Positions 28,566 to 64,000 of a DNA stretch of 64,000 nt are shown here, one piece after another. Within the stretch, counting starts at the first letter, position 1. Each line of letters starts with the position of its first letter. The position numbers were made by a program, and so were the translations under genes. The DNA comes from Candidatus Magasanikbacteria bacterium RIFOXYD1_FULL_40_23 (lineage in GTDB: Bacteria; Patescibacteriota; Patescibacteriia; Magasanikbacterales; GWA2-37-8), in the NCBI GenBank assembly GCA_001783215.1, contig MFRA01000005.1, forward strand, positions 329,423 to 393,422. The letters are read 5' to 3'. Under the pieces are notes generated by a model that was not told where the DNA came from, ran no database searches, and was given only the letters and a program-made list of their open reading frames with translations.

Positions 28566-30086
28566 ATGTCGAAAAAGTATCTGTACATTGGCTATATTTT
28601 AAGCTGGCTAGTATTTTTTGGTTTTTCTTTGTATCGCTACGCCCAAATTTTGGCGGGAGAGTGTAGGTTTTTCACAAATGGATGGTTGGCGTGTGCGCCT
28701 CAATCAGAATTAAGCAGTCTAGGAAAGTTCGGTATTATTTTTTTAATCGTGGCGGTGTTTGGTTATTTTTTATATACCACTTGGTTGCTTTGGCAAAGTA
28801 ATGATCAAACGATTGGTATTTCCAATAAATTAAAGTGGATGTTATTTGGTCTTGGGGTTTTGGCAGTGTTTGTGGTGCCACTCGGTACAACCGATATGCC
28901 TTTTGATTTTTCGGCTGGAAAAGCAATTAGTAATAATTTAAATCCATACGTTGATAAATGGGTATTAGAAGTAGATTTTTCGGATAGAGGTAATTTTGCG
29001 CCAACTGCTGGATTTCCTTATGGCCCAATTATGGCCAGTGCTTTTTATTGGGTTTATAGTATAAGTTTCAACAATGTGTTGGTCTTTATGTTATTTTGGA
29101 AGATTTTGATGCTACTATTTTTTGTTGGTTGTGGTTTTCTAACAATGAAATTGGGCGGTTTATTATCGAATGGTAAAAATAATACAACTTGGTATGTGCT
29201 TTGGTTTGCACAGCCTATATTTTTGTTTGAATGGATGGTGAATGGGCATTTTGACGGCGTGTGGTTATTTTTTGTACTTCTTGCTTTTTATGCGGCCCAC
29301 ACCAAACGTTGGTGGCTTATGGCGCCAGCTTTTGCAATAGGTGTGTGGACTAAATTTATACCTATTTTTATCGCCCCATTTTTTGCCCTATGGTGGTGGC
29401 AAGATATAAGCAAAGAAACATGGAAAAAAAGTGTGTCAAAGATGGCGGTTGGTTTGGCGCTGGCTATTTTAATTACATTTTTAAGCTGGAAACCATTTTG
29501 GACTGGCCCAGCTGTATTTGCTTCGCTAATCAGTCAATCCAAATTTGCTTCAATGAGTATCTTTGCAACTGCATATTATTCTTTAAAGCCTTTGTTTGTT
29601 TGGTTGTTGGCAGATCAAGCCCACTGGTATCTTACTCGTTTGTTGCAAGGAAGTTTGTTGCTAATAGTTATCTATTTATTATATCCAATAATCAAAAAAT
29701 GTTTGGCTGTGTTGTTTAGAAAAGTAAAATTAGAAAGCGGGGATTATATACAGACCATGTTGATTTTTTTGCTAGTTTATCTTATAGTATGGCAAAAATC
29801 ATTTTGGCCGTGGTATGGCGTATGGTTTATACCTTTAGCTTTAATTTCTTACAAAGCCTATCAGCATCCATATGTGCTAAAAATTGCTGCCTGGTTTAGT
29901 CTGGCATCTCCTATTTACCACATAATTGCTTGGGCAACATTAAAAAATGACGCTGTATCAAAAGATGAATTATGGTTTTATTATTTAATAGTTTGTAGCG
30001 CTTTGCTGTATCCTCTGTATTTAATTTTCCTTTGGCGAAAAAAAGATTTTGCTAATACAAATGAACTACCGGTTAATAATACATAA
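28566..30086 (+). CDS. polytopic membrane protein, putative GT-C-fold glycosyltransferase (DUF2029-like)
   Basis: 506 aa with about 13 TM helices and a Trp-rich first loop; it opens the glycan gene cluster. Confidence 0.4.
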   Translation: MSKKYLYIGYILSWLVFFGFSLYRYAQILAGECRFFTNGWLACAPQSELSSLGKFGIIFLIVAVFGYFLYTTWLLWQSNDQTIGISNKLKWMLFGLGVLAVFVVPLGTTDMPFDFSAGKAISNNLNPYVDKWVLEVDFSDRGNFAPTAGFPYGPIMASAFYWVYSISFNNVLVFMLFWKILMLLFFVGCGFLTMKLGGLLSNGKNNTTWYVLWFAQPIFLFEWMVNGHFDGVWLFFVLLAFYAAHTKRWWLMAPAFAIGVWTKFIPIFIAPFFALWWWQDISKETWKKSVSKMAVGLALAILITFLSWKPFWTGPAVFASLISQSKFASMSIFATAYYSLKPLFVWLLADQAHWYLTRLLQGSLLLIVIYLLYPIIKKCLAVLFRKVKLESGDYIQTMLIFLLVYLIVWQKSFWPWYGVWFIPLALISYKAYQHPYVLKIAAWFSLASPIYHIIAWATLKNDAVSKDELWFYYLIVCSALLYPLYLIFLWRKKDFANTNELPVNNT

Positions 30087-30095
30087 AATATATCT

Positions 30096-31148
30096 ATGTC
30101 TCATACAAAAAGTCCAGCTAAAAAAGCTCTTATTACCGGCATAACAGGACAGGACGGCTCTTACCTGGCAGAATTTTTGTTAGACAAGGGCTATGAAGTT
30201 CATGGAATCATGCGTCGATCTAGTAGTTTTAACACTAGTAGGATCGAACATATTTATCAGGATCCGCACGAAAAGGGCATAAGACTAAAAATGCACTACG
30301 GAGACCTAACAGACGGTAGTAATTTAAATAGAATTATTGAAGAAATTAAACCGGATGAAATATATAATTTGGGTGCACAGAGCCACGTGCGAGTTAGTTT
30401 TGAATTGCCGGAATATACTTGCGATAGTGTAGGTTTGGGCACCTTACGTCTTCTAGATGCTGTACGAGATACTGGTTTGAAGGTTAAATTTTATCAGGCC
30501 GGATCTTCCGAAATGTTTGGTAAAGTAAGAGAAACACCTCAAAAAGAAACTACGCCATTTTATCCTCGCAGCCCATATGGTTGCGCCAAAGTTTTTGCGC
30601 ACAATTTGGCTGTAAATTATAGAGAATCGTACGGCATGTTTATTTGTAACGGTATATTATTCAATCATGAGTCTCCTCGTCGTGGTGGAACATTTGTAAC
30701 CAAAAAAATAGTAGATGGCTTTGCGCAAATTAAAAGCGGCAAACGCGACAAAATTTATTTGGGCAATTTAGAAGCCAAGCGCGACTGGGGTTATGCCAAA
30801 GATTATGTGGAAGCAATGTGGCTTATGTTGCAACAGCCCCAGCCGGATGATTTTGTAATTGCTACGGGTGAAGCGCATAGCGTTCGAGAATTTGCTGAAG
30901 AAGCAGCTTTGTATTTTGGTTACGAATTAAAATGGGAAGGTGAAGGCTTGCAAGAAAAAGGAATAGATAAAAAATCCGGACAAGTTTTGGTTGAAATAGA
31001 CCCCGAATATTTCCGTCCGGCCGAGGTAGAATTTTTGCTTGGAGATGCTAGTAAGGCCAAGAATGTTTTGGGCTGGGAAGCAAAAGTAAGGTTTAAAGAG
31101 TTGGTAAAGATAATGTGTGAGGCAGAAATAGATAAAAAAGATAACTAA
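30096..31148 (+). CDS. gmd: GDP-mannose 4,6-dehydratase
   Basis: [48 protein letters not shown] is near-identical to the E. coli Gmd N-terminus. Confidence 0.9.
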
Positions 31149-31178
31149 CCCATATTGCTACTAACCTGTTTATTTTGT

Positions 31179-32123
31179 ATGGATAAAAATTCAAAAATCT
31201 ATGTAAGCGGTCATAACGGTCTTGTTGGAACAGCGCTTGTTAACGAACTCAAAAGACAAGGTTATGAAAACATTGTTACCAGATCCCACAAAGATTTGGA
31301 GCTGCTAGATCAAGTGTCAGTAAATAAATTTTTTGAAGAAGAAAGACCAGAGTATGTTTTTCATCTAGCTGCGAAAGTGGGAGGAATTATTGGTAATAAA
31401 ACCTATCCAGCTGATTTCACTTATGAAAATACAATAATTAATTTTAATGTCATTCACGCAGCGCATCAAGTGGGTGTTAAGAAGTTGTTGAATTTTGGGA
31501 GTATTTGTATTTATCCGCTGAAAGCAGAAGTTCCAGTGAAGGAAAGTTCTTTGCTAACAGGACCGTTAGAATCTTCCAATGAAGGTTATGCGATTTCCAA
31601 GATTGCTAGTCTTATGCTTTGTAAGAAATATAAAGAGCAGTATGGCAGTAATTTTATTTCTGTTATGCCAGCTAATCTATATGGTCCACATGATAACTTT
31701 CATCCTCAAAATGCCCATGTAATTCCCATGCTTATGGATCGGTTTCATAAGGCCAAGGTAAATGGCGATCAAGAGGTTGTAGTTTGGGGAACAGGAAAAC
31801 CAACCAGAGATTTTCTCTACTCCGAAGATTTAGCTGAAGGTTTGGTATTGTTAATGAATAAGTATGATGAGCTAGAGCATATAAATATTGGTCCCGGAGC
31901 GGAAACTTCAATTCGGGAGTTGGCAGAAACAATGAAAGAAGTAGTAGGCTTTAACGGAGGGCTTGTATTTGATATTTCCAAACCGGACGGGACTCCGAGA
32001 AGGTATTTAGATATTGAAAAGATGAATGGTTTAGGATGGAATGCGAAGACTTCGTTAAAGAATGGATTGTCGAGTATGTATGCTTGGTATCTTGATAATG
32101 CAGACCATCTTAATAGTAAATAA
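31179..32123 (+). CDS. fcl: GDP-L-fucose synthase (GDP-4-keto-6-deoxymannose 3,5-epimerase/4-reductase)
   Basis: IYVSGHNGLVG ... AAKVGGI ... YPADF ... PANLYGPHDNFHP ... KPDGTPR aligns with E. coli Fcl along its whole length. Confidence 0.85.
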   Translation: MDKNSKIYVSGHNGLVGTALVNELKRQGYENIVTRSHKDLELLDQVSVNKFFEEERPEYVFHLAAKVGGIIGNKTYPADFTYENTIINFNVIHAAHQVGVKKLLNFGSICIYPLKAEVPVKESSLLTGPLESSNEGYAISKIASLMLCKKYKEQYGSNFISVMPANLYGPHDNFHPQNAHVIPMLMDRFHKAKVNGDQEVVVWGTGKPTRDFLYSEDLAEGLVLLMNKYDELEHINIGPGAETSIRELAETMKEVVGFNGGLVFDISKPDGTPRRYLDIEKMNGLGWNAKTSLKNGLSSMYAWYLDNADHLNSK

Positions 32124-32180: not shown

Positions 32181-32975
32181 ATGAGTCTGCACAAAAATAA
32201 TTTTCTTAGTAATCCGGTATTGTTTCTATTGCGTCAAATCTATAGAGTATTTTTTATATGGCCATTTCAGTTTGTAGTGATAGTGTTTAGTTTTTTTGCC
32301 AAGAGCAATCAATTTGCAGACAAAGAAAAGTCGCCATATTGTTTTATTATAACTTCGGTAATTTATCCGAAACCAGGTAAGCAGATTCAGTACAACGCGC
32401 CCCGTTCCGTTTTTAGTCCAGAAGATAGGGCCAAACAAACTCAACAAACCATAGATTCTATACGCAGTCGGGTGCCGGGAGCCAAAATAATTTTGGTAGA
32501 AAGCGGTCTGCAAAAGGCGCTGCCGTTTGATGTAGATAAAAAAGCCGATCAATATATTTATGTTGGAGATAATAAATTAGTGCGTTGGTCTTGTGATAGT
32601 AAACAGAAAAGCTTGGGTGAAATAATGATGTTATATTTTGCGATGAAAAAGTTTGAGTTTTCGGCCGATTTTTATTTTAAAATAAGCGGACGGTATTTTT
32701 TAAACGAGGAGTTCGATTTGAACGCTTGGAAGCAGGGGGATTTTGTTTTGCAATACATTAAAGAAGACTATATTTGTACACGGCTATATGGTTTTCGCAG
32801 TTCAGTGTTTTCTGTATGGAAATATGCGCTGTTAAAAGGAATTCCATTAACTATGGTTGCTTACCCAATAGAAAACACATTGGCAAAGTATATACCAAGA
32901 AATCGGGTGCATAGATTGGTGCGGCTTGGAGTATCTGGGGTAGGGGCATCATCTAGTGAAATTATTAGGGATTAA
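32181..32975 (+). CDS. hypothetical protein (possibly a nucleotide-sugar transferase-like fold)
   Basis: 264-aa ORF in an operon-like position with no confident motif. Confidence 0.3.
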   Translation: MSLHKNNFLSNPVLFLLRQIYRVFFIWPFQFVVIVFSFFAKSNQFADKEKSPYCFIITSVIYPKPGKQIQYNAPRSVFSPEDRAKQTQQTIDSIRSRVPGAKIILVESGLQKALPFDVDKKADQYIYVGDNKLVRWSCDSKQKSLGEIMMLYFAMKKFEFSADFYFKISGRYFLNEEFDLNAWKQGDFVLQYIKEDYICTRLYGFRSSVFSVWKYALLKGIPLTMVAYPIENTLAKYIPRNRVHRLVRLGVSGVGASSSEIIRD

Positions 32976-33018
32976 CTAAAATTAAATTTATTCTATAATT
33001 CATTAATTCATCTTACGT

Positions 33019-33807
33019 ATGAATCCAAAACTTAAACAATTTTTAAAGAAAACTTTTCCACTGGGATTATTGGTGGCTGCAGATAGAATAAAAAATAAAA
33101 TACTTAATAAGTTTAGATATTTAGAGTTTTTAAAAGAGTGGAAGCAATTTAAAGAGATGTCAGGCCAACTTGGAGACAATAGATTTGTTCTATCTTCCAA
33201 AAATTTTTATCCTATTCTACACGAAAAGGCTAGTACGCATGATTACGATCATCATTATATTTATCATCCAGCTTGGGCTGCCAGAAAATTGGCCGAAATT
33301 AAACCAGAATTTCATGTAGATATTAGCTCAACACTCCATTTTAGTACTATTGTTTCAGCTTTTATTCCTGTAAAATTTTATGATTATCGACCCGCTGTAG
33401 TAGATTTAAATAATTTTACTTCAGGGTCCGCTGATTTGTTAAAGCTGCCGTTTGAGGACAATAGTATAAAATCTCTTTCTTGCATGCATACGCTTGAACA
33501 TATTGGTTTGGGTAGATATGGCGACCCGATTGATCCGATTGGTGATGTTAAGTCTATGAAAGAGTTAGGGCGAGTTTTGGCTGTGGGTGGAAGTTTGTTA
33601 ATTGTAGTACCGGTAGGGAAGCCGAATGTAATGTTTAATGCCCATAGAGTTTTTGCTTATGAACAAGTGATAAATGCTTGTGCTGGTCTTCAAGTGCGAG
33701 AGTTTACTTTGCTTACTGACGATGGAAGGTTTATTACCAATGCCGACAAATCTTTGGTAGAGCAACAAATTTACGGTATGGGATGTTTTTGGTTTGTTAA
33801 GCCGTAA
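33019..33807 (+). CDS. putative SAM-dependent methyltransferase (DUF268-like)
   Basis: LKLPFEDNSIKSLSCMHTLEHIG ... LAVGGSLLIVVPVG is a Methyltransf_11-like core. Confidence 0.45.
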   Translation: MNPKLKQFLKKTFPLGLLVAADRIKNKILNKFRYLEFLKEWKQFKEMSGQLGDNRFVLSSKNFYPILHEKASTHDYDHHYIYHPAWAARKLAEIKPEFHVDISSTLHFSTIVSAFIPVKFYDYRPAVVDLNNFTSGSADLLKLPFEDNSIKSLSCMHTLEHIGLGRYGDPIDPIGDVKSMKELGRVLAVGGSLLIVVPVGKPNVMFNAHRVFAYEQVINACAGLQVREFTLLTDDGRFITNADKSLVEQQIYGMGCFWFVKP

Positions 33808-33827
33808 ATTTATCTGAGCGTTAAATT

Positions 33828-35129
33828 ATGCAAATGATAGAGTGGGTACAATCTATTTTTAAAAAAAAAGCATTGCACCAAACGGCTTTTGTTACGGTTG
33901 GGTCGTTAATAAACGGCGTATCATTGCTTGTACTTAATATAGTTTTGGCCAGAGCTTTGAGCAGAGAAGTCTTTGGAATCTTTTCATTGTCTGTTTTAGC
34001 ACTGAGCACAGCGGCGGAATTGTCTGACTTTGGTTTGAATTTAGGCCTTCTTAGGTTCGCCCCCTATTACATCGCTACCAATCAAACAGAAAAGTTAAAA
34101 CAGTTAATCAAAACAATCTGGCGTTGGAGAGTTATACTTACTTGGGTGCTCACAGTAGGCGGCATAGTTTTGTCCTATCCTTTGGCCAAGTATATGTTTG
34201 GCCAAGCCAAGGTGGCCCCGTACCTAGCTTATTCCTTTTTAGGCATCGGTGGTGTTATACTGCTTGGTTTTTTGGCTACTTTTTTGCAAGCAAAGCAAAG
34301 ATTTTTTTATCAAGCTTCCGTCCAATCGCTAAAAGGTTTTTTACGTTTGGCTATAGTTGTGATTTTGGCTATATTCGGTGTAGAAAATTTGTTTGCATAT
34401 TTATCTGTATATATTTTTGTTCCTTGGATTTTGTTTATAGTAAACTATGGGGTTTTCCCGGAAAAGTTTAGGACAGTCGAAGTGGACGGAGAGGTTAAGA
34501 AAAATTTACATTCCCAGTTAGCCAAATTTAGTTTTTGGCTTACGATTTCTTCGTTACTAGGGATTATCGGTGGCAAAATAGACCAAGTAATTATTAGTCA
34601 TTACCTTGGATTAGAATACGTTGCAGTTTTTACTGTTGCTTGGCAATTTTTGCAGATTTTTATGGTGCTTAATGGTTCTATTAGTTCTGTTTTAATGCCG
34701 AAGATAAGTAGTTTGAAGAATAAAGCGGAATTAGTTATTTTTGTTAAACGAGTCTTTAAATGGGTGCTTGTCGGAACAATTGGTATCGCGTTTTTAATCT
34801 ATCCATCTCAATATTTAATTAATTTCATTTTTGGCCAGAAGTACGTAGAAGCGATGCCAGTTTATTTAATCTTAGCCTATAGTATGTTATTAAATATTTT
34901 GGCTATCCCGCTGTCTATGACCATTACTGTTTTCAACAAAACCCACATAATGGCTGTGGCTGCGTTTTTTCAGACCGTTATCTTTATTATTTCTAATTTA
35001 GTATTTATTCCTCGATATGGTATTATGGGGGCAGCCTATGCGTATGTGGTTGTGCAGGTAGCCACATTTATGTGGAATCTCATATGGTCTCTGTATTTAA
35101 TAAAAAAGAAAGATTTTAATATAGTATAA
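33828..35129 (+). CDS. wzx: Wzx-type oligosaccharide flippase (MOP superfamily polysaccharide biosynthesis protein)
   Basis: 433 aa with about 12 TM helices; the N-terminal TVGSLINGVSLLVLNIVLAR is a typical Wzx start. Confidence 0.6.
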   Translation: MQMIEWVQSIFKKKALHQTAFVTVGSLINGVSLLVLNIVLARALSREVFGIFSLSVLALSTAAELSDFGLNLGLLRFAPYYIATNQTEKLKQLIKTIWRWRVILTWVLTVGGIVLSYPLAKYMFGQAKVAPYLAYSFLGIGGVILLGFLATFLQAKQRFFYQASVQSLKGFLRLAIVVILAIFGVENLFAYLSVYIFVPWILFIVNYGVFPEKFRTVEVDGEVKKNLHSQLAKFSFWLTISSLLGIIGGKIDQVIISHYLGLEYVAVFTVAWQFLQIFMVLNGSISSVLMPKISSLKNKAELVIFVKRVFKWVLVGTIGIAFLIYPSQYLINFIFGQKYVEAMPVYLILAYSMLLNILAIPLSMTITVFNKTHIMAVAAFFQTVIFIISNLVFIPRYGIMGAAYAYVVVQVATFMWNLIWSLYLIKKKDFNIV

Positions 35130-35133
35130 AAGT

Positions 35134-36123: not shown

Positions 36124-36128
36124 AGTTT

Positions 36129-36914
36129 ATGGCTTCTATTACAGCCCACTGTTTGGTAAAAAATGAAGAAAATTTTGTTTATTACACTATAAAATCCGTA
36201 GTTAATTTTGTTGATACCATAATGGTTTTTGATACTGGCTCTACCGATAAAACTGTAGAAATTATAAAAGACCTAGTAAAAGAATATCCAAACAAAATAA
36301 TTTTTGAAGAAAAGGGCGTTGCAGACGGTAAAAGACATACGGAGTTGCGACAAGAAATGCTAGATAGAACAAAGACTGAATGGTTTATGGTGCTTGATGG
36401 CGATGAAGTTTGGACCAAACGAGTAATGGAAGAAGCGCTGGGTGTTATAAAAAGTAAATCTACAGTAGAGGCAATTTTAGCCCCATTTTACTTGTGTGTT
36501 GGCGATATTTATCACCGCACATTTAGAAAAGGTCCAATGAAGATGTTGGGCAGGCAAGATTTTTTTTATCCGAGGTTTATAAAAATTGTAAATGGCGTAC
36601 ATTGGAGCGGGGATTATAATCAAGACACCCTGCTAACAGGCGATAAAAAAGTTTTTTGTGCAGATAACAATTCTGTAATTTTGCAGGAAAAGTATTGGCA
36701 TATGACCCACCTAAAAAGATCTTCGCAAGATGATAACGACTACAGTTCTGGCGGTAATCGTCGCATAAAGAGAAGATTGAGTTATTTTATTATCGGCAGA
36801 AAAATTAACGAACCTGCCCCAGAAGTTTTTGCAGGCAAGGAAGCAGAGCTTAAAATGCCATACCCAATTTCATTTATTAATTTTTTTAAATTATTATTTA
36901 AAATAAGTATTTAG
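36129..36914 (+). CDS. family-2-like glycosyltransferase
   Basis: ITAHCLVKNEENFV ... FDTGSTDKT ... VLDGDE. Confidence 0.5.
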   Translation: MASITAHCLVKNEENFVYYTIKSVVNFVDTIMVFDTGSTDKTVEIIKDLVKEYPNKIIFEEKGVADGKRHTELRQEMLDRTKTEWFMVLDGDEVWTKRVMEEALGVIKSKSTVEAILAPFYLCVGDIYHRTFRKGPMKMLGRQDFFYPRFIKIVNGVHWSGDYNQDTLLTGDKKVFCADNNSVILQEKYWHMTHLKRSSQDDNDYSSGGNRRIKRRLSYFIIGRKINEPAPEVFAGKEAELKMPYPISFINFFKLLFKISI

Positions 36915-55801: not shown

Positions 55802-55824
55802 TATAAAAACTTATTTCGAATATA

Positions 55825-57013: not shown

Positions 57014-57066
57014 ATTACGCGCCGCGTTTCAAATGACGTTACGCGGCATGATTTCGCTAAATCAAT

Positions 57067-58236
57067 ATGTCTACCAGAAAAATAACCGTAGCTCAGATCC
57101 GTGGAGATGGGTTAAGTGATCGCGAAACCAAAACCTGGGAATATTTTTCTGACGATATTGTGCAGACAGTTTTTGCATCTCGAAAAAACGTTTATTCTCA
57201 ATCCGCTTTGCCTTTTCCAATCATAACATTGCCAGCTAGTAGTGATAATTTTTTATTCAAAAATTACTATAAATATTTTTTTGGTCAATACAAAAGAATG
57301 TTTGGTTTAGAAAAACATTTAGCCGGGTTTGACGTGGCGCATGCGGGTGAGCTTTATAATTATTATACGTACCAAGCTGTCTCGGCAAAAAAGATAAATA
57401 AGAATTTAAAAGTAGTAGCTACAGTTTGGGAAAATAGTTTTGGCAGATTTGAATATAATTACTGGCCGGGATTTAAAATCCCACCAGCTTATTGGCGTCG
57501 TCAGCTCAAAGCGGTTATGGATCGCAACAAAGATGGAGTAGATAAGTTTTTACCAGTCTCTCAAGATGCGGCTGGTTTGTTGTCAGATTACGGCGTTGCA
57601 GATAGTCAAATTCAAGTAGTTGTTCCTGGCATCATCCCAACTCCTGAAGGCAAAATAGTTGTACCTACGCAATTCGCTGGTAAGCAAATTTACTTAATGG
57701 TTAATCGTCTGGTAAAGGAAAAAGGGGTCTATGATGTTTTGTATGGCTGGAGAATATATCTTTCCAAAGCATCAGACGCCAGTCGCAAATTACTTGTTAT
57801 CGTAGGAGAAGGTCCGGAGCTAGGTAATATGCGCCGACTCGTTAAAGAGTGGCAAATGGAGAATAAAATTGCTTTTGTTAATCAGATGCCGTATAGCGAA
57901 GTTTTGGGTCTTTATAAGGGTGCGCAGTGCTTAATTTTGGGCAGTATTCCACGACCAACCTGGCAAGAACAGTTTGGCTATGTGCTCGCCGAAGCTATCT
58001 GTGCCGGTGTGCCTATTGTAGCCACCTATAGTGGTGCAATCCCAGAAGTGGTGGGTGAGGCTGGTTTGCTTGTGCCGCCCGCTCATCCTATTGCGCTGGC
58101 AAATGCCTTGCTTTCAACAGATGACGCCTCTGTTTATAATCGTCTAAAAACAGGTTGTCAAAAAGAAGCAAAGAAGTTTGCGGCTGAAAGCTACGCTCGT
58201 CAAGTCAGTGATATTTACAGATCTTTAGTTGGTTAA
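57067..58236 (+). CDS. family-4 (GT-B) glycosyltransferase
   Basis: C-terminal EQFGYVLAEAICAGVPIVATYSGAIPEVV EX7E region. Confidence 0.55.
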   Translation: MSTRKITVAQIRGDGLSDRETKTWEYFSDDIVQTVFASRKNVYSQSALPFPIITLPASSDNFLFKNYYKYFFGQYKRMFGLEKHLAGFDVAHAGELYNYYTYQAVSAKKINKNLKVVATVWENSFGRFEYNYWPGFKIPPAYWRRQLKAVMDRNKDGVDKFLPVSQDAAGLLSDYGVADSQIQVVVPGIIPTPEGKIVVPTQFAGKQIYLMVNRLVKEKGVYDVLYGWRIYLSKASDASRKLLVIVGEGPELGNMRRLVKEWQMENKIAFVNQMPYSEVLGLYKGAQCLILGSIPRPTWQEQFGYVLAEAICAGVPIVATYSGAIPEVVGEAGLLVPPAHPIALANALLSTDDASVYNRLKTGCQKEAKKFAAESYARQVSDIYRSLVG

Positions 58237-58256: not shown

Positions 58257-58955
58257 GTGGTTATGCTAAGGGTTTCAATTGTTATTCCTACTTATAACGA
58301 AGCAAAAAACCTTCCGCTTTTGGCCGAAGAAATTTTTGGCGTAGTTGATCGAAATCAATTTGATGTGGAGTTAATTATTGTAGATGATAATTCTCCAGAC
58401 GGAACTGGAGCGGTGGCAGATGATTTAGCCAAAAAATATCCAATACAAGTTATTCATCGCGCAGGCAAGCTAGGTTTGGGTAGTGCAGTTCGTGAAGGGT
58501 TTGCCAAATCCAATCGTGAAGTATTGGGGGTAATGGATGCCGATCTAAGCCACGATCCGCAGCATCTTAATCAAATGCTTTCACTTTTAAGTGAGTATGA
58601 TTTGGTGGTAGGCAGTAGATTTGAGCAGGGAAGTACTGTAGAGCAATGGAAATGGTGGCGACGTATTATTTCGCAAGTAGGCGTGTTTGTTACGTATATG
58701 CTTACAGGCGTAAAAGATCCGCTTAGCGGCTTTTTCTTCTTCCGCCGTTTTATTTTAGCCAATGTCGAACTTAGCACCACTGGTTATAAAATATTATTAG
58801 AAATTTTAGTTAAAGGTAATCACAAAAAAGTAAAAGAAATCCCGTTTCGTTTTCGTATCAGGAAATTTAGCACCTCTAAACTGGACAAGAAAGAATATTG
58901 GTTATTTTTAAAACAAATTATTTCCTATAGCTTGTATAAAATTTTTAAGAAATAG
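58257..58955 (+). CDS. polyprenyl-phosphate sugar synthase-type GT2 (DPM1/ArnC-like)
   Basis: VSIVIPTYNEAKNLPLL ... IIVDDNSPDGT ... GVMDADLSHDP. Confidence 0.75.
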   Translation: MVMLRVSIVIPTYNEAKNLPLLAEEIFGVVDRNQFDVELIIVDDNSPDGTGAVADDLAKKYPIQVIHRAGKLGLGSAVREGFAKSNREVLGVMDADLSHDPQHLNQMLSLLSEYDLVVGSRFEQGSTVEQWKWWRRIISQVGVFVTYMLTGVKDPLSGFFFFRRFILANVELSTTGYKILLEILVKGNHKKVKEIPFRFRIRKFSTSKLDKKEYWLFLKQIISYSLYKIFKK

Positions 58956-58959
58956 AGTT

Positions 58960-60504
58960 ATGTGGTTGAGAATTAAAAATTGGTGCAGTCTAAATAAGTT
59001 TTTGGTTGCCCTATTAATTTTATCTGCGTTTCTGCTTTTTTATCGTATTTCTTATAGAACTTTTTGGGGAGACGAAATGGCAGTTCTAGATTACCTCAAA
59101 GAAAGTCCGCGAGAATTTTTAGTTAATTATTGGAATAAACCGGATAATCATCCGCCTCTGTATTATTTTTTGGTTGTTTTGGTTAGTAAGATCTTGCCAT
59201 GGAATGAATTTATGGTGCGTTTTGTGTCTGCAGTATCTGGGTTAGCTACTGTGTATTTGGTATATATATTTTCGTTTCGTGTTAGTGGTCAAAAAAAGTT
59301 GGCACTGCTCGCAGGGCTATTTACCGCCGTTTCATCTTATTTTGTCCTTATTTCACAGATGGCTAGGTATCATAGTTTGGCGGCGTTGTTTTCGCTTCTA
59401 ACCTTTTATTTTTTCTACCAGCTTTTCGTAGAGGGGTATTCTAAGCGGGCGTGGTATTTGTTTTTAGTTTCGTTAGTAGCTACTGGTTATACAGACTACC
59501 CGCATTGTTTTTATGTGGTTGTGATTGTAAATACCTTTTATTTATACAGCCTAATAAAGCGTAAAGCCAGCGTGTCGTTCTTGAAATGGGTGGGGGGACA
59601 ATTGGCGGCAGTTGTTTTGCTTAGCCCTTTGGCGTGGATGATTTATAACAGAATTGCGGTGCAAGGCGATGGTGGTTGGGATAAAATAAACTTGCTAGCG
59701 AATTCTTGGGTGCATATTGTAATGGCTATATTTTTCCATATTTACAGTTTTTTATTTGGAGAAAATGTTTTTCCTTGGAATTATTTTTTCTTTTTATCTG
59801 GGGTGGCTGTGTTGTTGGGGGTGTTGTTTGGGTTTATATATGGACTCCGCAAAAAGTCGTGGACCTCTAGCCAGTTGTTTGTGGTAGCTTTAAGTGTATT
59901 TACAGTGGTCTTAAATACATTCTTCATGAACATGGCTAACCCTCGTTATAATTTTATAGTGTATCCAAAGTTTGGTTTTGTGGCTTTTCCTTTGTGGGTT
60001 ATGGTATTTGTCTTATGTTTAAGCAAACTGCCAGATAAAATTAGGATAGCTTTATTTTCTTTATGGGCAGTGGTGGCTATTTTTGGCTTATATAATTTTT
60101 ATCAGGCAACAAATTATTTAAACCCTAGTTATTTTCGCACCTTTGAATCTTTTGAATATATTCGTGATCATGCCAAAGAGGGTGAGTATTTTGCAATTTC
60201 TCCACATGCTGGACCTGGTTTTTTTGAGTTTTATAAAGGCAAATATTTTAATAGCTTAAAAACAGCTGATTGGAAGCAGATTCCGATTCTAGAAAAACAG
60301 GCAAGGCTTTGGTATTTCTCGGCTGGTTCAGAAGGTGCCGAAACTACCTTTGATCCATCTATGGTAGTTCCGGAAGGTTACAAAATTCTAGAACAGTTTG
60401 ATAGCGTGCCGCTTGATCCAACATTTAAAAAAGTAAAAGAAAAAGTATTGGGTCGTCCTGGCTATACTTATAAATATAGTCTATTTTTATTAGAAAAAAT
60501 TTAA
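58960..60504 (+). CDS. GT-C-fold membrane glycosyltransferase (ArnT/PMT, GT39/83-like)
   Basis: 514 aa with about 12 TM helices and a first-loop acidic motif FWGDEMAV; directly downstream of an ArnC-like gene. Confidence 0.55.
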   Translation: MWLRIKNWCSLNKFLVALLILSAFLLFYRISYRTFWGDEMAVLDYLKESPREFLVNYWNKPDNHPPLYYFLVVLVSKILPWNEFMVRFVSAVSGLATVYLVYIFSFRVSGQKKLALLAGLFTAVSSYFVLISQMARYHSLAALFSLLTFYFFYQLFVEGYSKRAWYLFLVSLVATGYTDYPHCFYVVVIVNTFYLYSLIKRKASVSFLKWVGGQLAAVVLLSPLAWMIYNRIAVQGDGGWDKINLLANSWVHIVMAIFFHIYSFLFGENVFPWNYFFFLSGVAVLLGVLFGFIYGLRKKSWTSSQLFVVALSVFTVVLNTFFMNMANPRYNFIVYPKFGFVAFPLWVMVFVLCLSKLPDKIRIALFSLWAVVAIFGLYNFYQATNYLNPSYFRTFESFEYIRDHAKEGEYFAISPHAGPGFFEFYKGKYFNSLKTADWKQIPILEKQARLWYFSAGSEGAETTFDPSMVVPEGYKILEQFDSVPLDPTFKKVKEKVLGRPGYTYKYSLFLLEKI

Positions 60505-60522
60505 TCTTTGTTGTTTTGTTCT

Positions 60523-61380
60523 ATGTTGTGTATTAATTGTGGTACAAAAATGGATGCATATTTTGTAAAAAAGAGTTTCAGTATTGTGCGTTGTTTTACC
60601 TGTAAACTTATGGCCGTAGAAAATGTACCCGCTGACCTAAGCCCATATTATAGGGAAGGGTACTTTACCGGTGATGTGACCTTAGACGGTTATATGGATT
60701 ATGATTCAGACAAAGAAGTTAGTAAGAAAACCTATGTGGATTTTCTTGGAGTAATGAAAAAATTTGTTAAAAACCAACATAGTCCTAGTATGTTAGAAGT
60801 TGGTTGTGCTACTGGATTTTTTATGAATTTGGGCAAGCAGCAGGGGTGGCAAGTAGAGGGGATAGATATATCGGAATATGCAGTCCAAAAAACCAAAGAA
60901 AAGGGAATGGTAGCGTCGGTTGGTACATTAGAAACATATGTAACAGATAAAAAATTTGACGCCATCGTAGCCCAAGATGTAATTGAGCATGTAAAAGACC
61001 CTATTAACGATATTAAAAAATCCGCTGATTTACTCGCAGACAATGGCTTGTTGGTGCTCACCACTCCAGACGCCGGTAGTCTGTGGGCCAGGGTATGGGG
61101 TAAGCGTTGGCATGCTTTTGTGCCGCCTCAGCACTTATTTTATTTTTCAGTCAAAAACCTCTCTTCTGTTTTAGAGAAAAATGGCTTCAAGGTAGAGTAT
61201 TGCGCCCATCACGGTAAGTGGTTTGCAGTTCCATATATTATCAGGCTCTTGTATAGCTGGACTGGTCTTGGAATTTTTTCCAAACTAGCGAGCTGGTCTA
61301 GCAATTCTTTTTTAAAAAAAATATCCCTGCCTATAAATGTCAGAGATACTATTTTTTTGATTGCTCGAAAGATTAACTAA
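60523..61380 (+). CDS. class I SAM-dependent methyltransferase with N-terminal Zn-ribbon
   Basis: CINCGTKM...CFTCKL four-Cys ribbon, then LEVGCATGFF motif I and DVIEHVKDP. Confidence 0.6.
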   Translation: MLCINCGTKMDAYFVKKSFSIVRCFTCKLMAVENVPADLSPYYREGYFTGDVTLDGYMDYDSDKEVSKKTYVDFLGVMKKFVKNQHSPSMLEVGCATGFFMNLGKQQGWQVEGIDISEYAVQKTKEKGMVASVGTLETYVTDKKFDAIVAQDVIEHVKDPINDIKKSADLLADNGLLVLTTPDAGSLWARVWGKRWHAFVPPQHLFYFSVKNLSSVLEKNGFKVEYCAHHGKWFAVPYIIRLLYSWTGLGIFSKLASWSSNSFLKKISLPINVRDTIFLIARKIN

Positions 61381-61381
61381 T

Positions 61382-62509
61382 TTATTCCGCTAGAGTTTTT
61401 TCTATAGACTTCCAAAGATCTGCCGCTGATTTATCCCAAGAGAATTTTTGACATTGGATTTTTCCTTTTTCAATCAGCATATGGCGCAGGCTTTCGTCGG
61501 CAGTTATCCTTACCATAGCATCTCTGACTTCTTGGATTTGAAACGGATTAACAAATACGGCTGCGCCGCCCGCTATTTCTGGCATAGAAGTAAGACTAGA
61601 AGAGATAATAGGTACGTGTGCCCGCATGGCCTCTACTAGAGGTACGCCAAAACCTTCAAAATATGGGATGTAGGTTAAGCAGAAAGCTGAACCCAAAAGT
61701 AGTCTCATTTCATTGTCGTCTACTCGGCCAGTAAAAATAATATCGTTTTTAAATTCTAGTTTGTTCAAAGTTTCGTTGAGTTTGTCTTGTCCCCAAAAGT
61801 TTGCGCCAGCTATGATTAGTTTAAGGTTATTCTTATTTTCTTTTTTAAATAAATCAAAGGCTTCCATTAGCCGCCCTATATTTTTGCGAGGCGATACAGA
61901 TCCGATAAAAACGAAATAGTCTTCTCCTTTAGAATATTTTTGGCGCGTTTCTCTTTTTTCCTCTGCTGTTATTGGTGCGAAGATTTCATCCGCCGCATTG
62001 TATACAACGTCTATTTTATCTGAGCTTGTGCGGTATTCCTGCATTAGATCTTTTTTTGTGTATTCTGAAACAGTAACAATTCTATTGGCTGCGAAAGCGT
62101 ATTTAGGGAAGTAGTAATTAAAAAATTTACCGGTCCAGAACTTAAGATCTTCGGGGTAGTGTTTAAAGTTGATGTCGTGGATAACTGCCAACTGCTTACA
62201 CTGGGCACCCAAAGGTAGAAGTCCGTCCGGAGACAAAAACAGGTCTGGTTTAATTTTTTTTAGGGCTAGTTTTACTGATATTTGAAACCATAAGTAATAT
62301 AAAAAAGGATGCCTGGTTGGGGGTGGAATAACCATCGGGGTTACGTTTTTGGAAAAAATAAATTCATCGCTAAATTTTCTGTCGAATAAAAATACAAACT
62401 CAACTTCGGGATGAGCCTTGGTGATCCTGCTTAATGTGTGATAGGCAAATCGACCGATACCGTCTAGGCGGTCTTTTAGGAGCATGCGTGTATTTACTGC
62501 AATTTTCAT
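61382..62509 (-). CDS. family-4 (GT-B) glycosyltransferase
   Basis: EGFGVPLVEAMRAHVPIISSSLTSMPEIAG EX7E motif; N-terminal MKIAVNTRML. Confidence 0.7.
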   Translation of the reverse strand: MKIAVNTRMLLKDRLDGIGRFAYHTLSRITKAHPEVEFVFLFDRKFSDEFIFSKNVTPMVIPPPTRHPFLYYLWFQISVKLALKKIKPDLFLSPDGLLPLGAQCKQLAVIHDINFKHYPEDLKFWTGKFFNYYFPKYAFAANRIVTVSEYTKKDLMQEYRTSSDKIDVVYNAADEIFAPITAEEKRETRQKYSKGEDYFVFIGSVSPRKNIGRLMEAFDLFKKENKNNLKLIIAGANFWGQDKLNETLNKLEFKNDIIFTGRVDDNEMRLLLGSAFCLTYIPYFEGFGVPLVEAMRAHVPIISSSLTSMPEIAGGAAVFVNPFQIQEVRDAMVRITADESLRHMLIEKGKIQCQKFSWDKSAADLWKSIEKTLAE

Positions 62510-62636
62510 ATTCGAAATGAGTGAGTGAAATAGCTAGTGAGATATTTATAATCGCTTGCGAGTTATAAATATTGAATCTGGATATTTTTGAGCGAATGAG
62601 TATATATGCGGCGCAGCCCATATAATAAAATGGGCG
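62510..62636 (-). promoter_or_regulatory. conserved hairpin+leader cassette (family B), copy F on the minus strand
   Basis: the reverse complement reads GGGCTGCGCCGC + ATATATACTCATTCGCTC ... TTTCACTCACTCATTTCGAATATG, about 85% identical to copy B. Confidence 0.65.
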
Positions 62637-62797
62637 TATAAACTAGGTTTTAGTATAGCATATAAGTCAAATTTACCTCAATTAGCCAGCTTGCCAAGGG
62701 GGCGTATTTTATTATATACTATCGTATATTAGTAACTTGCTCGGAAAAGTTTGCAAGCGACCTTTTCTCTCGTTTCATTACTAATATAATCAACCAT

Positions 62798-63349
62798 ATG
62801 GAATCAACTAAATTAAACATTGGCTGCGGAAATCATATTTTGCCTGGATGGGTCAATTTAGACATATCCGCCTTACCGGGCGTAGATGTCGTGCACAATA
62901 TAGAAAGTTCCCCCTTTCCTTTTCCAGACGGCAAATTTGAAGAAGTCCTCTGCCAAGATGTATTGGAACACGTTGACTATATACCTGTTTTACGGGAAAT
63001 TTTGCGTATCATGAAAAAAGATGGGTCTTTAACTATTCGCGTTCCTCATTTTACATCCAAGCATAATTTTATGGATCCAACCCATAAAAAAATGTTTTCT
63101 ATCAACACCTTTGATTTTTTTGTAAAAGGTTCGTCCGAACAAGATAGCAGGGGTTATTATTTTGATTTTAGCTTTTCCTCTTGCCGCGAAGCCAAAATAG
63201 TTTTTGAACGCGACTCAATAGTGTTTTTGTTAAACCCCCTAATTGAAAGTTTGGTAAACTCCAGTCCCAGAATGCAAAGAATATACGAATCCACCTTTCT
63301 TTCCAGACTTTTTCCGGCTGGTAATATTCTTGTAACTCTTATTAAATAG
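62798..63349 (+). CDS. class I SAM-dependent methyltransferase
   Basis: LNIGCGNHILPGWVNLD ... VLCQDVLEHVD ... MKKDGSL. Confidence 0.6.
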   Translation: MESTKLNIGCGNHILPGWVNLDISALPGVDVVHNIESSPFPFPDGKFEEVLCQDVLEHVDYIPVLREILRIMKKDGSLTIRVPHFTSKHNFMDPTHKKMFSINTFDFFVKGSSEQDSRGYYFDFSFSSCREAKIVFERDSIVFLLNPLIESLVNSSPRMQRIYESTFLSRLFPAGNILVTLIK

Positions 63350-63359
63350 TTCCAAAATT

Positions 63360-64000
63360 ATGGTTTCATTAATTGCAACTGTTTTAAATGAGGGTAACAA
63401 TATATCCGATTGGTTGAATGGAATCCTGTCTCAGACTGTTTTGCCAGATGAAATAATTATTGTAGACGGAGGATCAAAAGACGGTACATGGGAAATTTTA
63501 ACAAAAAAAAGCCAAGAAAATAATCGTATTAAAATTTTTCAACACGCAGGCAATATATCCTCTGGCAGAAATTTCGCTATAAGTAAAGCCGGTGGAGAAA
63601 ATATAGTAGTAACTGATGCTGGCTGCACATACGATAAAAATTGGTTTAAAAAAATTTCAGATCCGATTATTTCCGGTGCGCAAGTTTTTGTAGCCACAGG
63701 TTTTGGTCCTTGGTTCAAGCCAAGCGACAATTTATTAGCGTATTTAGTAGCCGCCGCCACCACTCCTGCTCCGGCTGAATTTAGCAGAAATTGGCTTCCC
63801 TCAAGCCGCTCAGTTGCTTTCAAGAAAGATGTTTGGGCAAAAGCTGGCGGTTATCCGGAATGGATTCCTCTCTGTGAAGATGTAGTCTTTGATTTCAAGA
63901 TTTTTAAAACAGGAATAAAGCCGAATTATATCCGTGAGGCGTTGGTTTTTTGGCGTCCGCGCACGACACTTTCTTCATTCTTCAAGCAATTGTTTGGTTA
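63360..64000 (+). CDS. family-2 glycosyltransferase (3'-truncated by the window end)
   Basis: MVSLIATVLNEGNNISDWLNGILSQTVLPDEIIIVDGGSKDGT; the ORF runs off the window end. Confidence 0.55.
   Translation, partial: MVSLIATVLNEGNNISDWLNGILSQTVLPDEIIIVDGGSKDGTWEILTKKSQENNRIKIFQHAGNISSGRNFAISKAGGENIVVTDAGCTYDKNWFKKISDPIISGAQVFVATGFGPWFKPSDNLLAYLVAAATTPAPAEFSRNWLPSSRSVAFKKDVWAKAGGYPEWIPLCEDVVFDFKIFKTGIKPNYIREALVFWRPRTTLSSFFKQLFG

Follow-up and report, generated by a model that had tools for sequence, protein, structure and literature searches.

A probable surface-glycan locus of Patescibacteria carrying a nine-gene, transaldolase-bearing sugar cassette

The region analysed here, positions 28566-64000 of a 64,000-nucleotide (nt) stretch of contig MFRA01000005.1 from Candidatus Magasanikbacteria bacterium RIFOXYD1_FULL_40_23 (the whole stretch is called the window, and all positions are counted in it), is probably a native surface-glycan locus of Patescibacteria of the Parcubacteria/Paceibacteria type, with at least 35 genes in exchangeable modules, among them a cassette for a higher-carbon sugar and an extracytoplasmic arm of GT-C glycosyltransferases. 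Genes were called by listing open reading frames (ORFs), inspecting start codons and scanning domains with Pfam and NCBIfam, and are named below by their lower coordinate. The glycan locus itself is of a known type; the new variant is its nine-gene cassette with a dedicated transaldolase and a dehydrogenase-like protein that has threonine in place of the catalytic cysteine (Thr-type). Judging by gene content and order in relatives, 39085-47287 is one conserved cassette spread over many phyla, and no description of a cassette joining heptose or octose genes with a transaldolase in surface glycans was found in the literature searched. A preliminary description of the same DNA had overlooked the transaldolase (46565-47287), an orphan GT-A-fold protein (32181) and the entire extracytoplasmic GT-C/polyprenyl-phosphate-sugar arm, in which one MptA/B-like (28566) and two PMT_2 proteins (53668 and 58960) were found.

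The nine-gene cassette and its distribution

The cassette runs without interruption from 39085 to 47287, with the following predicted products (SDR, short-chain dehydrogenase/reductase):

39085-40005, + strand: extended-SDR protein resembling NDP-sugar 4-epimerases (PF01370, 191 bits)
40113-41099, + strand: GHMP sugar-phosphate anomeric kinase, HddA/LmbP-like (PDB and NF049969 matches)
41159-42472, + strand (probable start 41159): UDP-Glc/GDP-Man dehydrogenase-family protein with Thr at the catalytic Cys position (three Pfam domains)
42482-43339, + strand: classical SDR of the ketoreductase type (PF00106, 195 bits)
43466-44467, + strand: Gfo/Idh/MocA oxidoreductase (PF01408, 94.5 bits; PF22725, 86.1 bits)
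44547-45116, + strand: SIS-domain ketose-/aldose-phosphate isomerase, GmhA/LmbN-like and divergent (PDB and TIGR00441 matches)
45143-45751, + strand: HAD-IIIA sugar-bisphosphate phosphatase, GmhB/LmbK-like (DRDGT, i.e. DxDxT, and a CPH...CRC, i.e. CxH...CxC, Zn loop)
45756-46490, + strand: sugar-1-phosphate nucleotidyltransferase, HddC/LmbO-like (PF00483, 103 bits)
46565-47287, + strand: small aldolase of the transaldolase/FSA family (PF00923, 134 bits; TIGR00875, 120.7 bits, cut-off 246)

A scan over one genome per species gave 80 related loci (numbered L001 onwards), with kinases 43-84% identical to the window kinase, and linkage was counted in the 44 of these that had full 10-kb flanks around the kinase homologue. 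Within 10 kb of the kinase, a HAD gene was present in 41 of the 44 loci, a transaldolase and a SIS gene in 38 each, an epimerase-like SDR in 36 and a nucleotidyltransferase in 30, with lower counts for Gfo (17), the classical SDR (16) and the dehydrogenase-like gene (15). Gfo in these flanked loci was almost always accompanied by the SDR and/or the Thr-type dehydrogenase-like gene, and in L008, L011, L047, L064, L071, L073 and L084 the SDR was flanked by the dehydrogenase-like gene on one side and Gfo on the other. The nine-gene block was found in the window's order in L008 and as a near variant, with the nucleotidyltransferase ahead of the kinase, in L011 (Magasanikbacteria), while L001 and L003 contained a five-gene core in the order nucleotidyltransferase, kinase, SIS, HAD, transaldolase. 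The transaldolase was 79-88% identical and syntenic in L001, L003, L008, L011 and L012, and the epimerase-like gene adjoined the kinase at 92-94% identity in L005 and L006. The full nine-gene set was also present in metagenome-assembled genomes (MAGs) of Gammaproteobacteria, Beijerinckiaceae, Eisenbacteria and Kiritimatiellia, and the set minus the dehydrogenase-like gene in Methanospirillum and Methanoregula; in other phyla the cassette was located among glycosyltransferases. This linkage and its recurrence across phyla indicate that the transaldolase and the oxidoreductases are integral to a conserved cassette and are not chance neighbours.

The kinase, SIS and transaldolase proteins of the window are 80-88% identical to their L001 counterparts as against 29-35% for the HAD and nucleotidyltransferase proteins, which points to non-orthologous replacement of the latter two as a module. 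DegT aminotransferase genes lie near the cassette in L003, L005 and L012. Three further genes come after the cassette in L001 (13840-18202) and L003 (13883-18244): an oppositely oriented gene for a B12-binding radical-SAM protein, a cupin gene and a gene for a 763-amino-acid (aa) fusion of a Methyltransf_13/14 C-methyltransferase with an SDR. To judge from these genes, sister Parcubacteria lineages may make sugars that are C-methylated or branched in some other way.

The gene at 41159 had been listed in the preliminary description as an NDP-sugar dehydrogenase. Its three domains place it in the UDPG/GDP-Man dehydrogenase family, but the catalytic Cys of that family is replaced by Thr, the aligned motif being GGTLGRD where solved UDP-glucose dehydrogenases (UGDHs) read GGSCFPKD (Cys to Thr, Lys to Arg). 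The pattern GG/GA-T-L-x-RD was common to all cassette-linked homologues in 15 loci, other UGDH paralogues in those loci keeping the Cys, and Thr was found at this position in 108 of the 150 best 50%-cluster representatives from a library of 1.84 billion proteins. The UGDH mechanism requires a thiol for the four-electron oxidation to uronic acid. With the catalytic Cys absent, the standard oxidation to uronic acid is not expected of the 41159 protein, and the alignment makes a uronic-acid branch at this locus unlikely. The dehydrogenase-like, SDR and Gfo genes sit inside the cassette and recur with it in other phyla and, by this arrangement, are not taken as a separate uronic-acid branch.

Heptose and octose readings of the cassette product

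The preliminary description had recognised a full route to GDP-D-glycero-alpha-D-manno-heptose. This held at the level of family resemblance (HddA-, GmhA-, GmhB- and HddC-like proteins), but domain annotation, which had been proposed as the check on these assignments, placed all four enzymes under the NCBIfam equivalog cut-offs and added a transaldolase to the cassette. The top four PDB matches of the kinase were D-glycero-D-manno-heptose-7-P kinases of the HddA/WcbL type (139-150 bits), yet its score with the HddA equivalog NF049969 was 167.6 bits against a cut-off of 600; its true start is taken as ATG 40113, where the leader motif of an intergenic repeat (see below) ends and which agrees with the 328-aa length of its homologues. 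All 13 PDB matches of the SIS protein were phosphoheptose isomerases, though weak ones (E 8e-11), with the aligned metal ligands reading H, E>D, Q>E, H and a TIGR00441 score of 49.8 bits against 209. The Zn loop that had been attributed to GmhB was seen in the HAD protein together with the DxDxT motif, but the GmhB models remained just out of reach (NF006506, 158.5 vs 178; TIGR00213, 134.3 vs 149.6). The nucleotidyltransferase scored 97.4 bits with the HddC equivalog NF049965 (cut-off 300) and matched HddC structures with E 4.5e-18, and its NCBIfam scores were ambiguous, the models of the archaeal GlmU N-terminus (124 bits), MurU (122 bits) and Man-1-P guanylyltransferase (ManC, 114 bits) all ranking above HddC (97 bits). 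The best solved relatives of the epimerase-like protein were UDP-hexose 4-epimerases and WbpP/WbgU, and a PDB sequence search with the Gfo protein gave no function-resolving match.

It is possible, if doubtful, that the cassette encodes just the canonical GDP-D-glycero-alpha-D-manno-heptose pathway, the transaldolase merely boosting sedoheptulose-7-P and the dehydrogenase, SDR, Gfo and epimerase proteins acting on separate UDP-sugars, for example towards a uronic acid. Sedoheptulose-7-P is a normal transaldolase product, a point in favour of that pathway, as are the best family matches (HddA, GmhA, GmhB and, among others, HddC) and the name D-glycero-alpha-D-manno-heptose-7-phosphate kinase given by JGI/NCBI to the closest kinase homologues. 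In a survey of freshwater bacteria of the Candidate Phyla Radiation (CPR), moreover, heptose biosynthesis genes were confined to Paceibacteria (PMC9166423). Three of the four enzymes, however, fall under their cut-offs by wide margins, and 38 of the 44 loci pair the kinase with a transaldolase, among them loci of phyla with large genomes, in which housekeeping enzymes of the pentose-phosphate pathway are presumably present. The dehydrogenase-like protein, moreover, is without the Cys for a four-electron oxidation, and the dehydrogenase-like, SDR and Gfo genes stand between the kinase and SIS genes and accompany the cassette from phylum to phylum.

The GDP-heptose pathways of S-layer, capsule and O-antigen clusters in Aneurinibacillus, Campylobacter, Burkholderia and Yersinia share with the window the same four steps (isomerase, anomeric kinase, phosphatase and nucleotidyltransferase), and the best solved relatives of the window kinase and isomerase are HddA/WcbL and GmhA. 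They differ from it in that the window enzymes score under the equivalog cut-offs and a transaldolase is integral to the cassette; we know of no canonical GDP-heptose cluster from these four genera with a dedicated transaldolase. Heptose tailoring in Campylobacter relies on SDR dehydratases, cupin epimerases and reductases, whereas the tailoring set of the window consists of the Thr-type dehydrogenase-like protein, Gfo and SDR.

The same family set is found in the sugar pathway of the lincosamide antibiotics. In lincomycin and celesticetin biosynthesis, LmbR is the transaldolase, LmbN the C8 isomerase, LmbP the C8 kinase, LmbK the C8 phosphatase and LmbO the guanylyltransferase; LmbM (epimerase), LmbL (dehydrogenase family), LmbZ/CcbZ (NAD(P) oxidoreductase) and LmbS (aminotransferase) serve in tailoring, GDP-octose being converted to GDP-lincosamide by LmbM, LmbL, CcbZ and CcbS, and the genes are arranged as an operon lmbVTQRSOPZNML plus lmbK (PMC4351081, PMC12945683). 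Compared by family and not by sequence, the cassette genes map one-to-one on LmbR/N/P/K/O and the LmbM/L/Z families, the SDR excepted. The transaldolase, SIS, kinase, HAD and nucleotidyltransferase genes are co-located in one block (40113-41099 and 44547-47287), as in the lmb set, and the cassette too has a dedicated small transaldolase and a pair of dehydrogenase-family and Gfo-family proteins, so that, at family level only, the lmb-type tailoring trio is present (SDR epimerase 39085, UDPG-DH-family 41159 and Gfo 43466). The cassette proteins are also similar in size to those of celesticetin biosynthesis (CcbR 222, CcbP 323, CcbO 232, CcbK 185, CcbN 202 and CcbL 436 aa). Reported best matches of the Ccb proteins outside the lincosamides were from Acidobacteria, Sorangium and Methanosarcina, lineages related to cassette-bearing loci of the present scan (Terriglobia/Acidobacteriota, Polyangiaceae and Methanomicrobia). 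The window differs from the lincomycin pathway in that the classical SDR occupies the place of the aminotransferase LmbS and that the context is a Wzx/glycosyltransferase surface-glycan locus in a CPR bacterium.

A family set equal to the lmb GDP-octose set, combined with the lack of any heptose equivalog, points to a C7 or C8 higher sugar as the sugar that is activated. On family membership, a C7 product has about an even chance, and a C8 product is a tentative candidate. Work of the Liu laboratory reportedly has octulose-8-P formed by LmbR through condensation of a C3 unit with ribose-5-P, and LmbL/CcbZ are said to carry out a 6,8-dehydration for which a three-carbon side chain is needed. 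With the caution due to a reading that we hold to be somewhat improbable, the cassette, with or without its 4-epimerase, Thr-type dehydrogenase-like, SDR and Gfo genes, may do in primary metabolism what the lincomycin sugar pathway does for the antibiotic, supplying a nucleotide-activated linear octose for the surface glycans of Patescibacteria and many other phyla; by analogy, if the dehydrogenase-like/Gfo pair performs the 6,8-dehydration and the SDR a 6-keto reduction, the product would be an 8-deoxy-octose. Should this octose proposal be true, eight-carbon aldoses would be a widespread and overlooked class of surface monosaccharide in bacteria and archaea, carried in the surface glycans of phyla including Dehalococcoidia, Acidimicrobiia, Myxococcota, Gammaproteobacteria and Methanomicrobiales, and the annotations "heptose kinase" and "galactokinase" would be wrong for thousands of cassette genes. 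Current annotation merges the transaldolase-bearing cassette with GDP-heptose synthesis. It is also possible that the lincosamide sugar pathway evolved from such a cassette.

Organisation and probable working of the locus

The preliminary description of about 35 tightly packed genes, nearly all on the + strand, was borne out by a count of 35 genes in 28566-64000, of which 33 are on the + strand and two (50217-50831 and 61382-62509) on the - strand (two-sided binomial P of about 4e-8 by our own arithmetic), with a coding fraction of 95.8% and a median intergenic gap of 20 nt. That the genes often overlap was overstated, since only three gene pairs do. Nearly all genes are of sugar-nucleotide, glycosyltransferase, methyltransferase or flippase types, and apart from the HD protein (50217-50831) no unrelated genes are interspersed. 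The Wzx flippase, the NodU/CmcH carbamoyltransferase, the HD hydrolase, the classical SDR, the Gfo/Idh/MocA oxidoreductase and the two epimerase/dehydratases (the extended SDRs 39085 and 55901) were all recovered by Pfam. At least nine GT2 or GT4 glycosyltransferases had been expected, and seven GT2 (35134, 36129, 47324, 52255, 54968, 58257 and 63360, the last cut by the window end) and three GT4 (37708, 57067 and 61382 on the - strand) were found; the six class I S-adenosylmethionine (SAM) methyltransferases came down to five methyltransferase-type genes (33019, 36916, 53076, 60508 and 62798).

To the left of the cassette lie the GDP-fucose genes and a conserved Patescibacteria core (32181-39048):

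28566-30086, + strand: membrane GT-C glycosyltransferase of the MptA/MptB family, 506 aa (PF26314 in homologues; at least seven hydrophobic segments)
30096-31148, + strand: GDP-mannose 4,6-dehydratase, Gmd (TIGR01472, 572 bits, cut-off 415)
31155-32123, + strand: GDP-L-fucose synthase-like protein, Fcl (NF047922, 434.5 bits, cut-off 500)
32181-32975, + strand: orphan GT-A-fold protein with an N-terminal helix, 264 aa, first gene of the conserved core (AlphaFold2 model and Foldseek)
33019-33807, + strand: DUF268 protein, methyltransferase-like (PF03269, 59.4 bits, cut-off 25; 80% identical in L001)
33828-35129, + strand: Wzx-type flippase (PF01943, 75.9 bits; PF13440, 58.6 bits; 10 hydrophobic segments; 82% identical in L001)
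35134-36123 and 36129-36914, + strand: two GT2 (PF00535, 65.7 and 49.8 bits; syntenic homologues in L001 and L005)
36916-37692, + strand: class I SAM methyltransferase (PF08241, 103.7 bits)
37708-39048, + strand: GT4, last gene of the conserved core (PF00534, 62 bits; 64-72% identical in L001, L003 and L005)

The 28566 protein had no match in the local Pfam and NCBIfam copies, and its family was read from precomputed PF26314 (MptA/B-family) matches in 43 of its 44 homologues, that is, in all 43 full ones, which include 75%-identical proteins; a 100%-identical fragment was also among the homologues. By analogy, this GT-C would use a polyprenyl-phosphate-sugar donor. The assignment of Gmd and Fcl to GDP-fucose synthesis stood, with Gmd above its equivalog cut-off and Fcl nearest to the E. 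coli GDP-fucose synthetase (351 bits) in spite of missing its own, and both are, on these matches, considered canonical GDP-fucose genes. Action of the two on GDP-heptose, as with the 6-deoxyheptose enzymes of Campylobacter and Yersinia, was considered and ruled out by the scores of Gmd with most solved GMDs (431-489 bits, one at 324) as against 122 bits with the C. jejuni GDP-heptose 4,6-dehydratase 7us5, and by the preference of Fcl for the E. coli enzyme over the C. jejuni heptose reductases (251 bits). The 32181 protein matched nothing in Pfam or NCBIfam and had only 188 homologues, none named, among 5.8 billion proteins. Its AlphaFold2 model (mean predicted local distance difference test score, pLDDT, 90.8) had GT6/GT8 retaining transferases as top Foldseek matches (TM score 0.45-0.5), and the gene is syntenic in L001, L003 and L005 (78%, 50% and 53% identical, respectively), so that, on the model, it is a probable glycosyltransferase of an undescribed family.

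The right-hand part of the locus comprises:

47324-48418, + strand: GT2 following the cassette (PF00535, 56.7 bits; 51-54% identical to the gene after the transaldolase in L001 and L008)
48421-50220, + strand: NodU/CmcH-type O-carbamoyltransferase (PF02543, 304 bits; PF16861, 222 bits)
50217-50831, - strand: HD-domain phosphohydrolase (PF01966, 38.1 bits)
51010-52191, + strand: 393-aa protein, weakly SGNH/AlgX-like (E about 8e-4, under Pfam cut-offs)
52255-53079, + strand: GT2 of module 1, polyprenyl-phosphate-sugar synthase-like (PF00535, 109 bits; nearest NCBIfam models AglJ, ArnC, PpgS and Dol-P-hexose transferase)
53076-53684, + strand: methyltransferase of module 1 (PF08241, 48 bits)
53668-54873, + strand: PMT_2 GT-C of module 1 (33.3 bits, cut-off 26.1)
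54968-55801, + strand: GT2 (domain scans; syntenic in L089)
55901-57013, + strand: extended SDR resembling 4,6-dehydratases (CDP- and dTDP-glucose 4,6-dehydratase models, 154 and 139 bits, under cut-offs)
57067-58236, + strand: GT4 (domain scans; syntenic in L089)
58257-58955, + strand: GT2 of module 2, polyprenyl-phosphate-sugar synthase-like (104 bits)
58960-60504, + strand: PMT_2 GT-C of module 2 (46 bits, cut-off 26.1)
60508-61380, + strand: methyltransferase of module 2 (Methyltransf_23, 101 bits)
61382-62509, - strand: GT4 (PF00534, 94.9 bits), with the inverted copy I1 of the repeated intergenic element upstream
62798-63349, + strand: small class I methyltransferase (PF08241, 31.8 bits; 72% identical in L088)
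63360-64000, + strand: GT2 cut by the window end (PF00535, 73.9 bits)

The carbamoyltransferase did not reach the NodU equivalog (137 vs 1000), and the gene at 51010, previously given as an SGNH-family protein, exists but its SGNH call (E about 1e-3) lies under the Pfam cut-offs. The HD protein has a 75%-identical homologue beside the cassette in L005 in the same orientation. The genes of module 1 (52255-54873) overlap by 4 and 17 nt, those of module 2 (58257-61380) are 67-80% identical and syntenic in L089, as are those of 54968-58236 (76-87% identical), and in each module a GT2 is paired with a GT-C (52255 with 53668, 58257 with 58960). The GT2 genes 47324-48418 and 54968-55801 are paralogues that share a 261-nt stretch of 72% nucleotide identity (47345-47605 vs 55010-55270, repeat D2), and both match the one GT2 located after the transaldolase in relatives. 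L088, a 72-78% identical relative, continues from its homologue of 63360 with a GT2, an SDR, a UDPG-DH-family gene, another SDR, a small ORF and FtsW/RodA, an order from which the locus probably extends about 5 kb beyond the window. Exact DNA searches of genome and metagenome contigs with the right end of the window gave no match, and neither did an exact protein look-up with the kinase, so that L088 served for this comparison.

We infer the following working from the families present, the gene order and the extent to which relatives share both. GDP-L-fucose would be made in the cytoplasm by Gmd and Fcl. The transaldolase/FSA protein would build a ketose phosphate (either sedoheptulose-7-P, starting from erythrose-4-P, or octulose-8-P, starting from ribose-5-P), which the SIS isomerase would convert to an aldose phosphate for phosphorylation at C1 by the GHMP kinase, removal of the terminal phosphate by the HAD phosphatase and activation by the nucleotidyltransferase. 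Remodelling of this higher sugar by the 4-epimerase-like SDR, the Cys-to-Thr dehydrogenase-like protein, Gfo and the classical SDR would likely involve oxidation, dehydration and reduction of the side chain and no uronic acid, and the 4,6-dehydratase-like SDR 55901 may supply a further deoxy sugar. Eleven GT-A/GT-B enzymes (the seven GT2, the three GT4 and the orphan GT-A-fold enzyme) would then build up the oligosaccharide on a polyprenyl carrier, the five methyltransferase-type enzymes and the NodU-type carbamoyltransferase would decorate it, and Wzx would flip it to the outer face. There, the three GT-C (one MptA/B-like and two PMT_2) would add residues from the polyprenyl-phosphate sugars made by two DPM1/ArnC-like GT2, and a Wzy_C-TPR protein encoded upstream (19972) may polymerise or ligate the product.

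The arrangement of two DPM1/ArnC-like GT2 upstream of PMT_2 GT-C, with one further MptA/B-family protein, resembles the GtrB/GtrC, ArnC/ArnT, Ppm1/Pmt and mycobacterial MptA/MptB systems, with the difference that no GtrA-type flippase was seen in the window. As in Wzx/Wzy or PglL-type loci, there are a Wzx, many GT2 and GT4 and a nearby Wzy_C-domain membrane protein; unlike in these, the window shows no initiating phosphoglycosyltransferase or chain-length regulator, and the Wzy_C protein has TPR repeats and lacks synteny with the cluster in relatives. The preliminary picture of a heptose- and deoxyhexose-containing, O-methylated and O-carbamoylated glycan is matched by the GDP-fucose, methyltransferase and carbamoyltransferase genes, but the heptose is not established. 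CPR bacteria live attached to other microbes and their surface chemistry is barely known; for genomes so small, more than 35 kb is much to devote to one locus, and such cells probably display deoxyhexose and a higher-carbon sugar on their surface, along with methyl and carbamoyl groups.

Several points weigh against the working proposed here and its reading as a single system. Conservation is a mosaic, the core (32181-39048) and the cassette being shared with L001, L003, L005 and L008 and the right end with L088 and L089. About 10 intergenic gaps exceed 50 nt, and these, together with the repeated promoter-like elements and the two minus-strand genes, indicate several transcription units. No Bac_transf or Glycos_transf_4 match, as expected of an initiating polyprenyl-phosphate sugar-1-P transferase of the WbaP/WecA type, was obtained in the scanned ORFs of 19972-64000 (such a gene may sit outside the window), and neither a chain-length regulator nor a clear Wzy was found in the 64-kb window. 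The enzyme specificities proposed above, including carbon number and nucleotide, are predictions from family membership, and the four core sugar enzymes score under the equivalog cut-offs. Since only core and cassette are conserved and the other modules vary, "supercluster" is a fair term and a single system is what we infer, such a mosaic being typical of variable surface-glycan loci.

Some of these observations would also fit several adjacent, independent glycan loci in a variable region, one for a Wzx-dependent oligosaccharide, two for decoration of the polyprenyl-phosphate-sugar/GT-C type and, set apart upstream, a ligase module, a reading that we regard as unlikely. Besides the mosaic (left part with L001, L003, L005 and L008, right part with L088 and L089), the gaps and the promoter-like repeats, it can draw on the non-orthologous replacement of HAD and nucleotidyltransferase relative to L001 and on the D2 duplication of a GT2. 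The dense coding (95.8%), the co-orientation of 33 of the 35 genes, the lack of unrelated genes between them other than the HD protein and the presence of a single Wzx speak for one locus instead. GtrB/GtrC and ArnC/ArnT are established pairs that decorate glycans made by other pathways, and GT-C with polyprenyl-phosphate-sugar synthases usually act in this manner, which again favours one locus.

A lincosamide-like or other secondary-metabolite cluster is very improbable. The cassette family set is indeed that of the lmb/ccb sugar genes, but domain scans of the window found no LmbS-type aminotransferase and no condensation or thiol-chemistry genes, so that the locus is not a lincosamide cluster, and adenylation/carrier-protein genes, LmbT/V/E/F-type thiol genes and a resistance methyltransferase were likewise absent from these scans; the locus contains Wzx, 10 GT2/GT4 and three GT-C, and in other phyla too the cassette is found among glycosyltransferases.

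The preliminary proposal of a dedicated surface-glycan system in an organism with no lipopolysaccharide genes in view was supported, and the closest relatives of its genes, with their gene order, in Patescibacteria MAGs mark the locus as native to such a non-lipopolysaccharide organism. The closest homologues of the cluster proteins come from Parcubacteria group bacterium Gr01-1014_13, Candidatus Magasanikbacteria, Portnoybacteria, Wildermuthbacteria and a Patescibacteria group bacterium, and gene order is shared with L001 and L010 (Parcubacteria Gr01-1014_13), L011 (Magasanikbacteria), L012 (Patescibacteria) and L008 (GC 0.386). The left 20 kb of the window has typical CPR content (VirB4-like, ComF-like and SufSBCD proteins and a small cupredoxin), and the GC content of the cluster is 0.370 as compared with 0.39 in the left flank. 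Two relatives with the window's gene order are labelled as Gram-negative, L008 (DATION010000004.1) as Candidatus Udaeobacter and L009 (CAZQLV010000120.1) as Gammaproteobacteria; their GC content of 0.386-0.397 and Patescibacteria-like order mark them as probably mis-binned Patescibacteria contigs. Contamination by an O-antigen locus from a Gram-negative contig, for which these two labels among the closest contigs speak, is the least probable reading of all, given the CPR-type flank, a cluster GC equal to that of the flank and the Parcubacteria, Magasanikbacteria and Patescibacteria labels of the other close relatives, and the check for such a contaminant found flank content, GC and relatives all to be those of Patescibacteria.

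Upstream genes and repeated intergenic elements

Three glycan-related genes upstream of the locus, and the last gene of the islet that separates them from it, are:

19972-22110, + strand: Wzy_C membrane protein with C-terminal TPR (PF04932, 73.6 bits, cut-off 31.7; TPR matches; 11 hydrophobic segments)
22116-22862, + strand: class I SAM methyltransferase (PF08241, 81.6 bits)
22981-23718, + strand: GT2 (PF00535, 67.5 bits)
27382-28431, + strand: IMPase-family phosphatase (PF00459, 74 bits; GC 0.54 as against 0.37 in the cluster)

The O-antigen-ligase-like TPR protein, methyltransferase and GT2 reported earlier at 20-23.7 kb were thus confirmed by Pfam matches, and their membership of the same system is plausible but finds no backing in the gene order of relatives, and a 4.6-kb GC-rich islet lies in between. 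A PDB sequence search with the Wzy_C-TPR protein matched the TPR part only, and relatives had no homologue at up to 10 kb from their core cluster; from its domains it is a possible ligase, polymerase or O-oligosaccharyltransferase. The islet (23785-28431, 4.6 kb) has a GC content of 0.47-0.57, with third-codon-position GC (GC3) up to 0.69, compared with 0.385 for the genome, and encodes an EamA transporter, a weak cupin, a beta-phosphoglucomutase-family HAD protein, a weak DUF218 protein and the IMPase-family protein. Its genes have ribosome-binding sites of the GGAGG/AAGGTG type, which the cluster genes lack, and the islet was probably acquired horizontally. The 27382 IMPase is 40% identical to L005:13297-14217 (-14220) and 29% to L008:14506-15420, both inside cassettes, and in three AT-rich Patescibacteria loci the cassette-linked IMPase genes are GC-rich (0.52-0.55), with proteins 29-40% identical.

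A repeated intergenic element of 85-126 nt stands right before start codons and consists of a short GC hairpin TATAGGGGCTAAAGCCCATATA, an AT-rich palindrome of 9-13 bp, both arms of which vary together between copies, and a leader ...TCACTCATTTCGAAT-ATG. Its copies in the window are:

40032-40115, 43340-43468, 44483-44549, 45129-45145 and 55821-55903, + strand; 62507-62625 and 12664-12709, - strand: repeated intergenic element (leader ...CACTCATTTCGAAT-ATG)

One copy spans the intergenic stretch 43340-43465, others end at the start codons 40113, 44547, 45143, 55901, 62509 (-) and 12666 (-), and the genes preceded by the element have no Shine-Dalgarno-like sequence. A 17-mer of the element had 8 matches against 0.31 expected (repeat families D3, D9 and I1, the last an inverted copy of the 126-nt element), and the element was also found ahead of cassette genes in relatives (L003:9263, L005:16634, L008:12441 and 15661, and L012:9987). 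One copy folds with z = -4.2; RNAalifold did not recover the hairpins from the element copies, which are offset in the alignment. The element could be a promoter/operator cassette or a 5'-untranslated-region element. Operons were not defined by a promoter/terminator scan, the counts of which were near shuffled expectation in this AT-rich DNA.

A second, palindromic intergenic repeat of about 72 nt (TGTCATTCTGAGCAAAGCGAAGAATCCCTT...AAGGGATCCTTCACTCCGTTCAGGATGACA) occurs in four copies between housekeeping genes (912-983, 1444-1515, 6082-6151 and 9582-9654) and looks like a repetitive extragenic palindrome (REP)- or miniature inverted-repeat transposable element (MITE)-like element or a shared terminator. 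At Rfam gathering thresholds, a scan of the window returned two tRNAs only. A direct repeat of 300 nt (14879-15178 and 15846-16145, 91% identity, 967 nt apart) lies beside two tRNA-Ser-like genes on the - strand (15240-15326 and 16207-16295; mean column identity 83%), one with anticodon GCT and the other with ACT as called by ARAGORN, which is unusual for bacteria.

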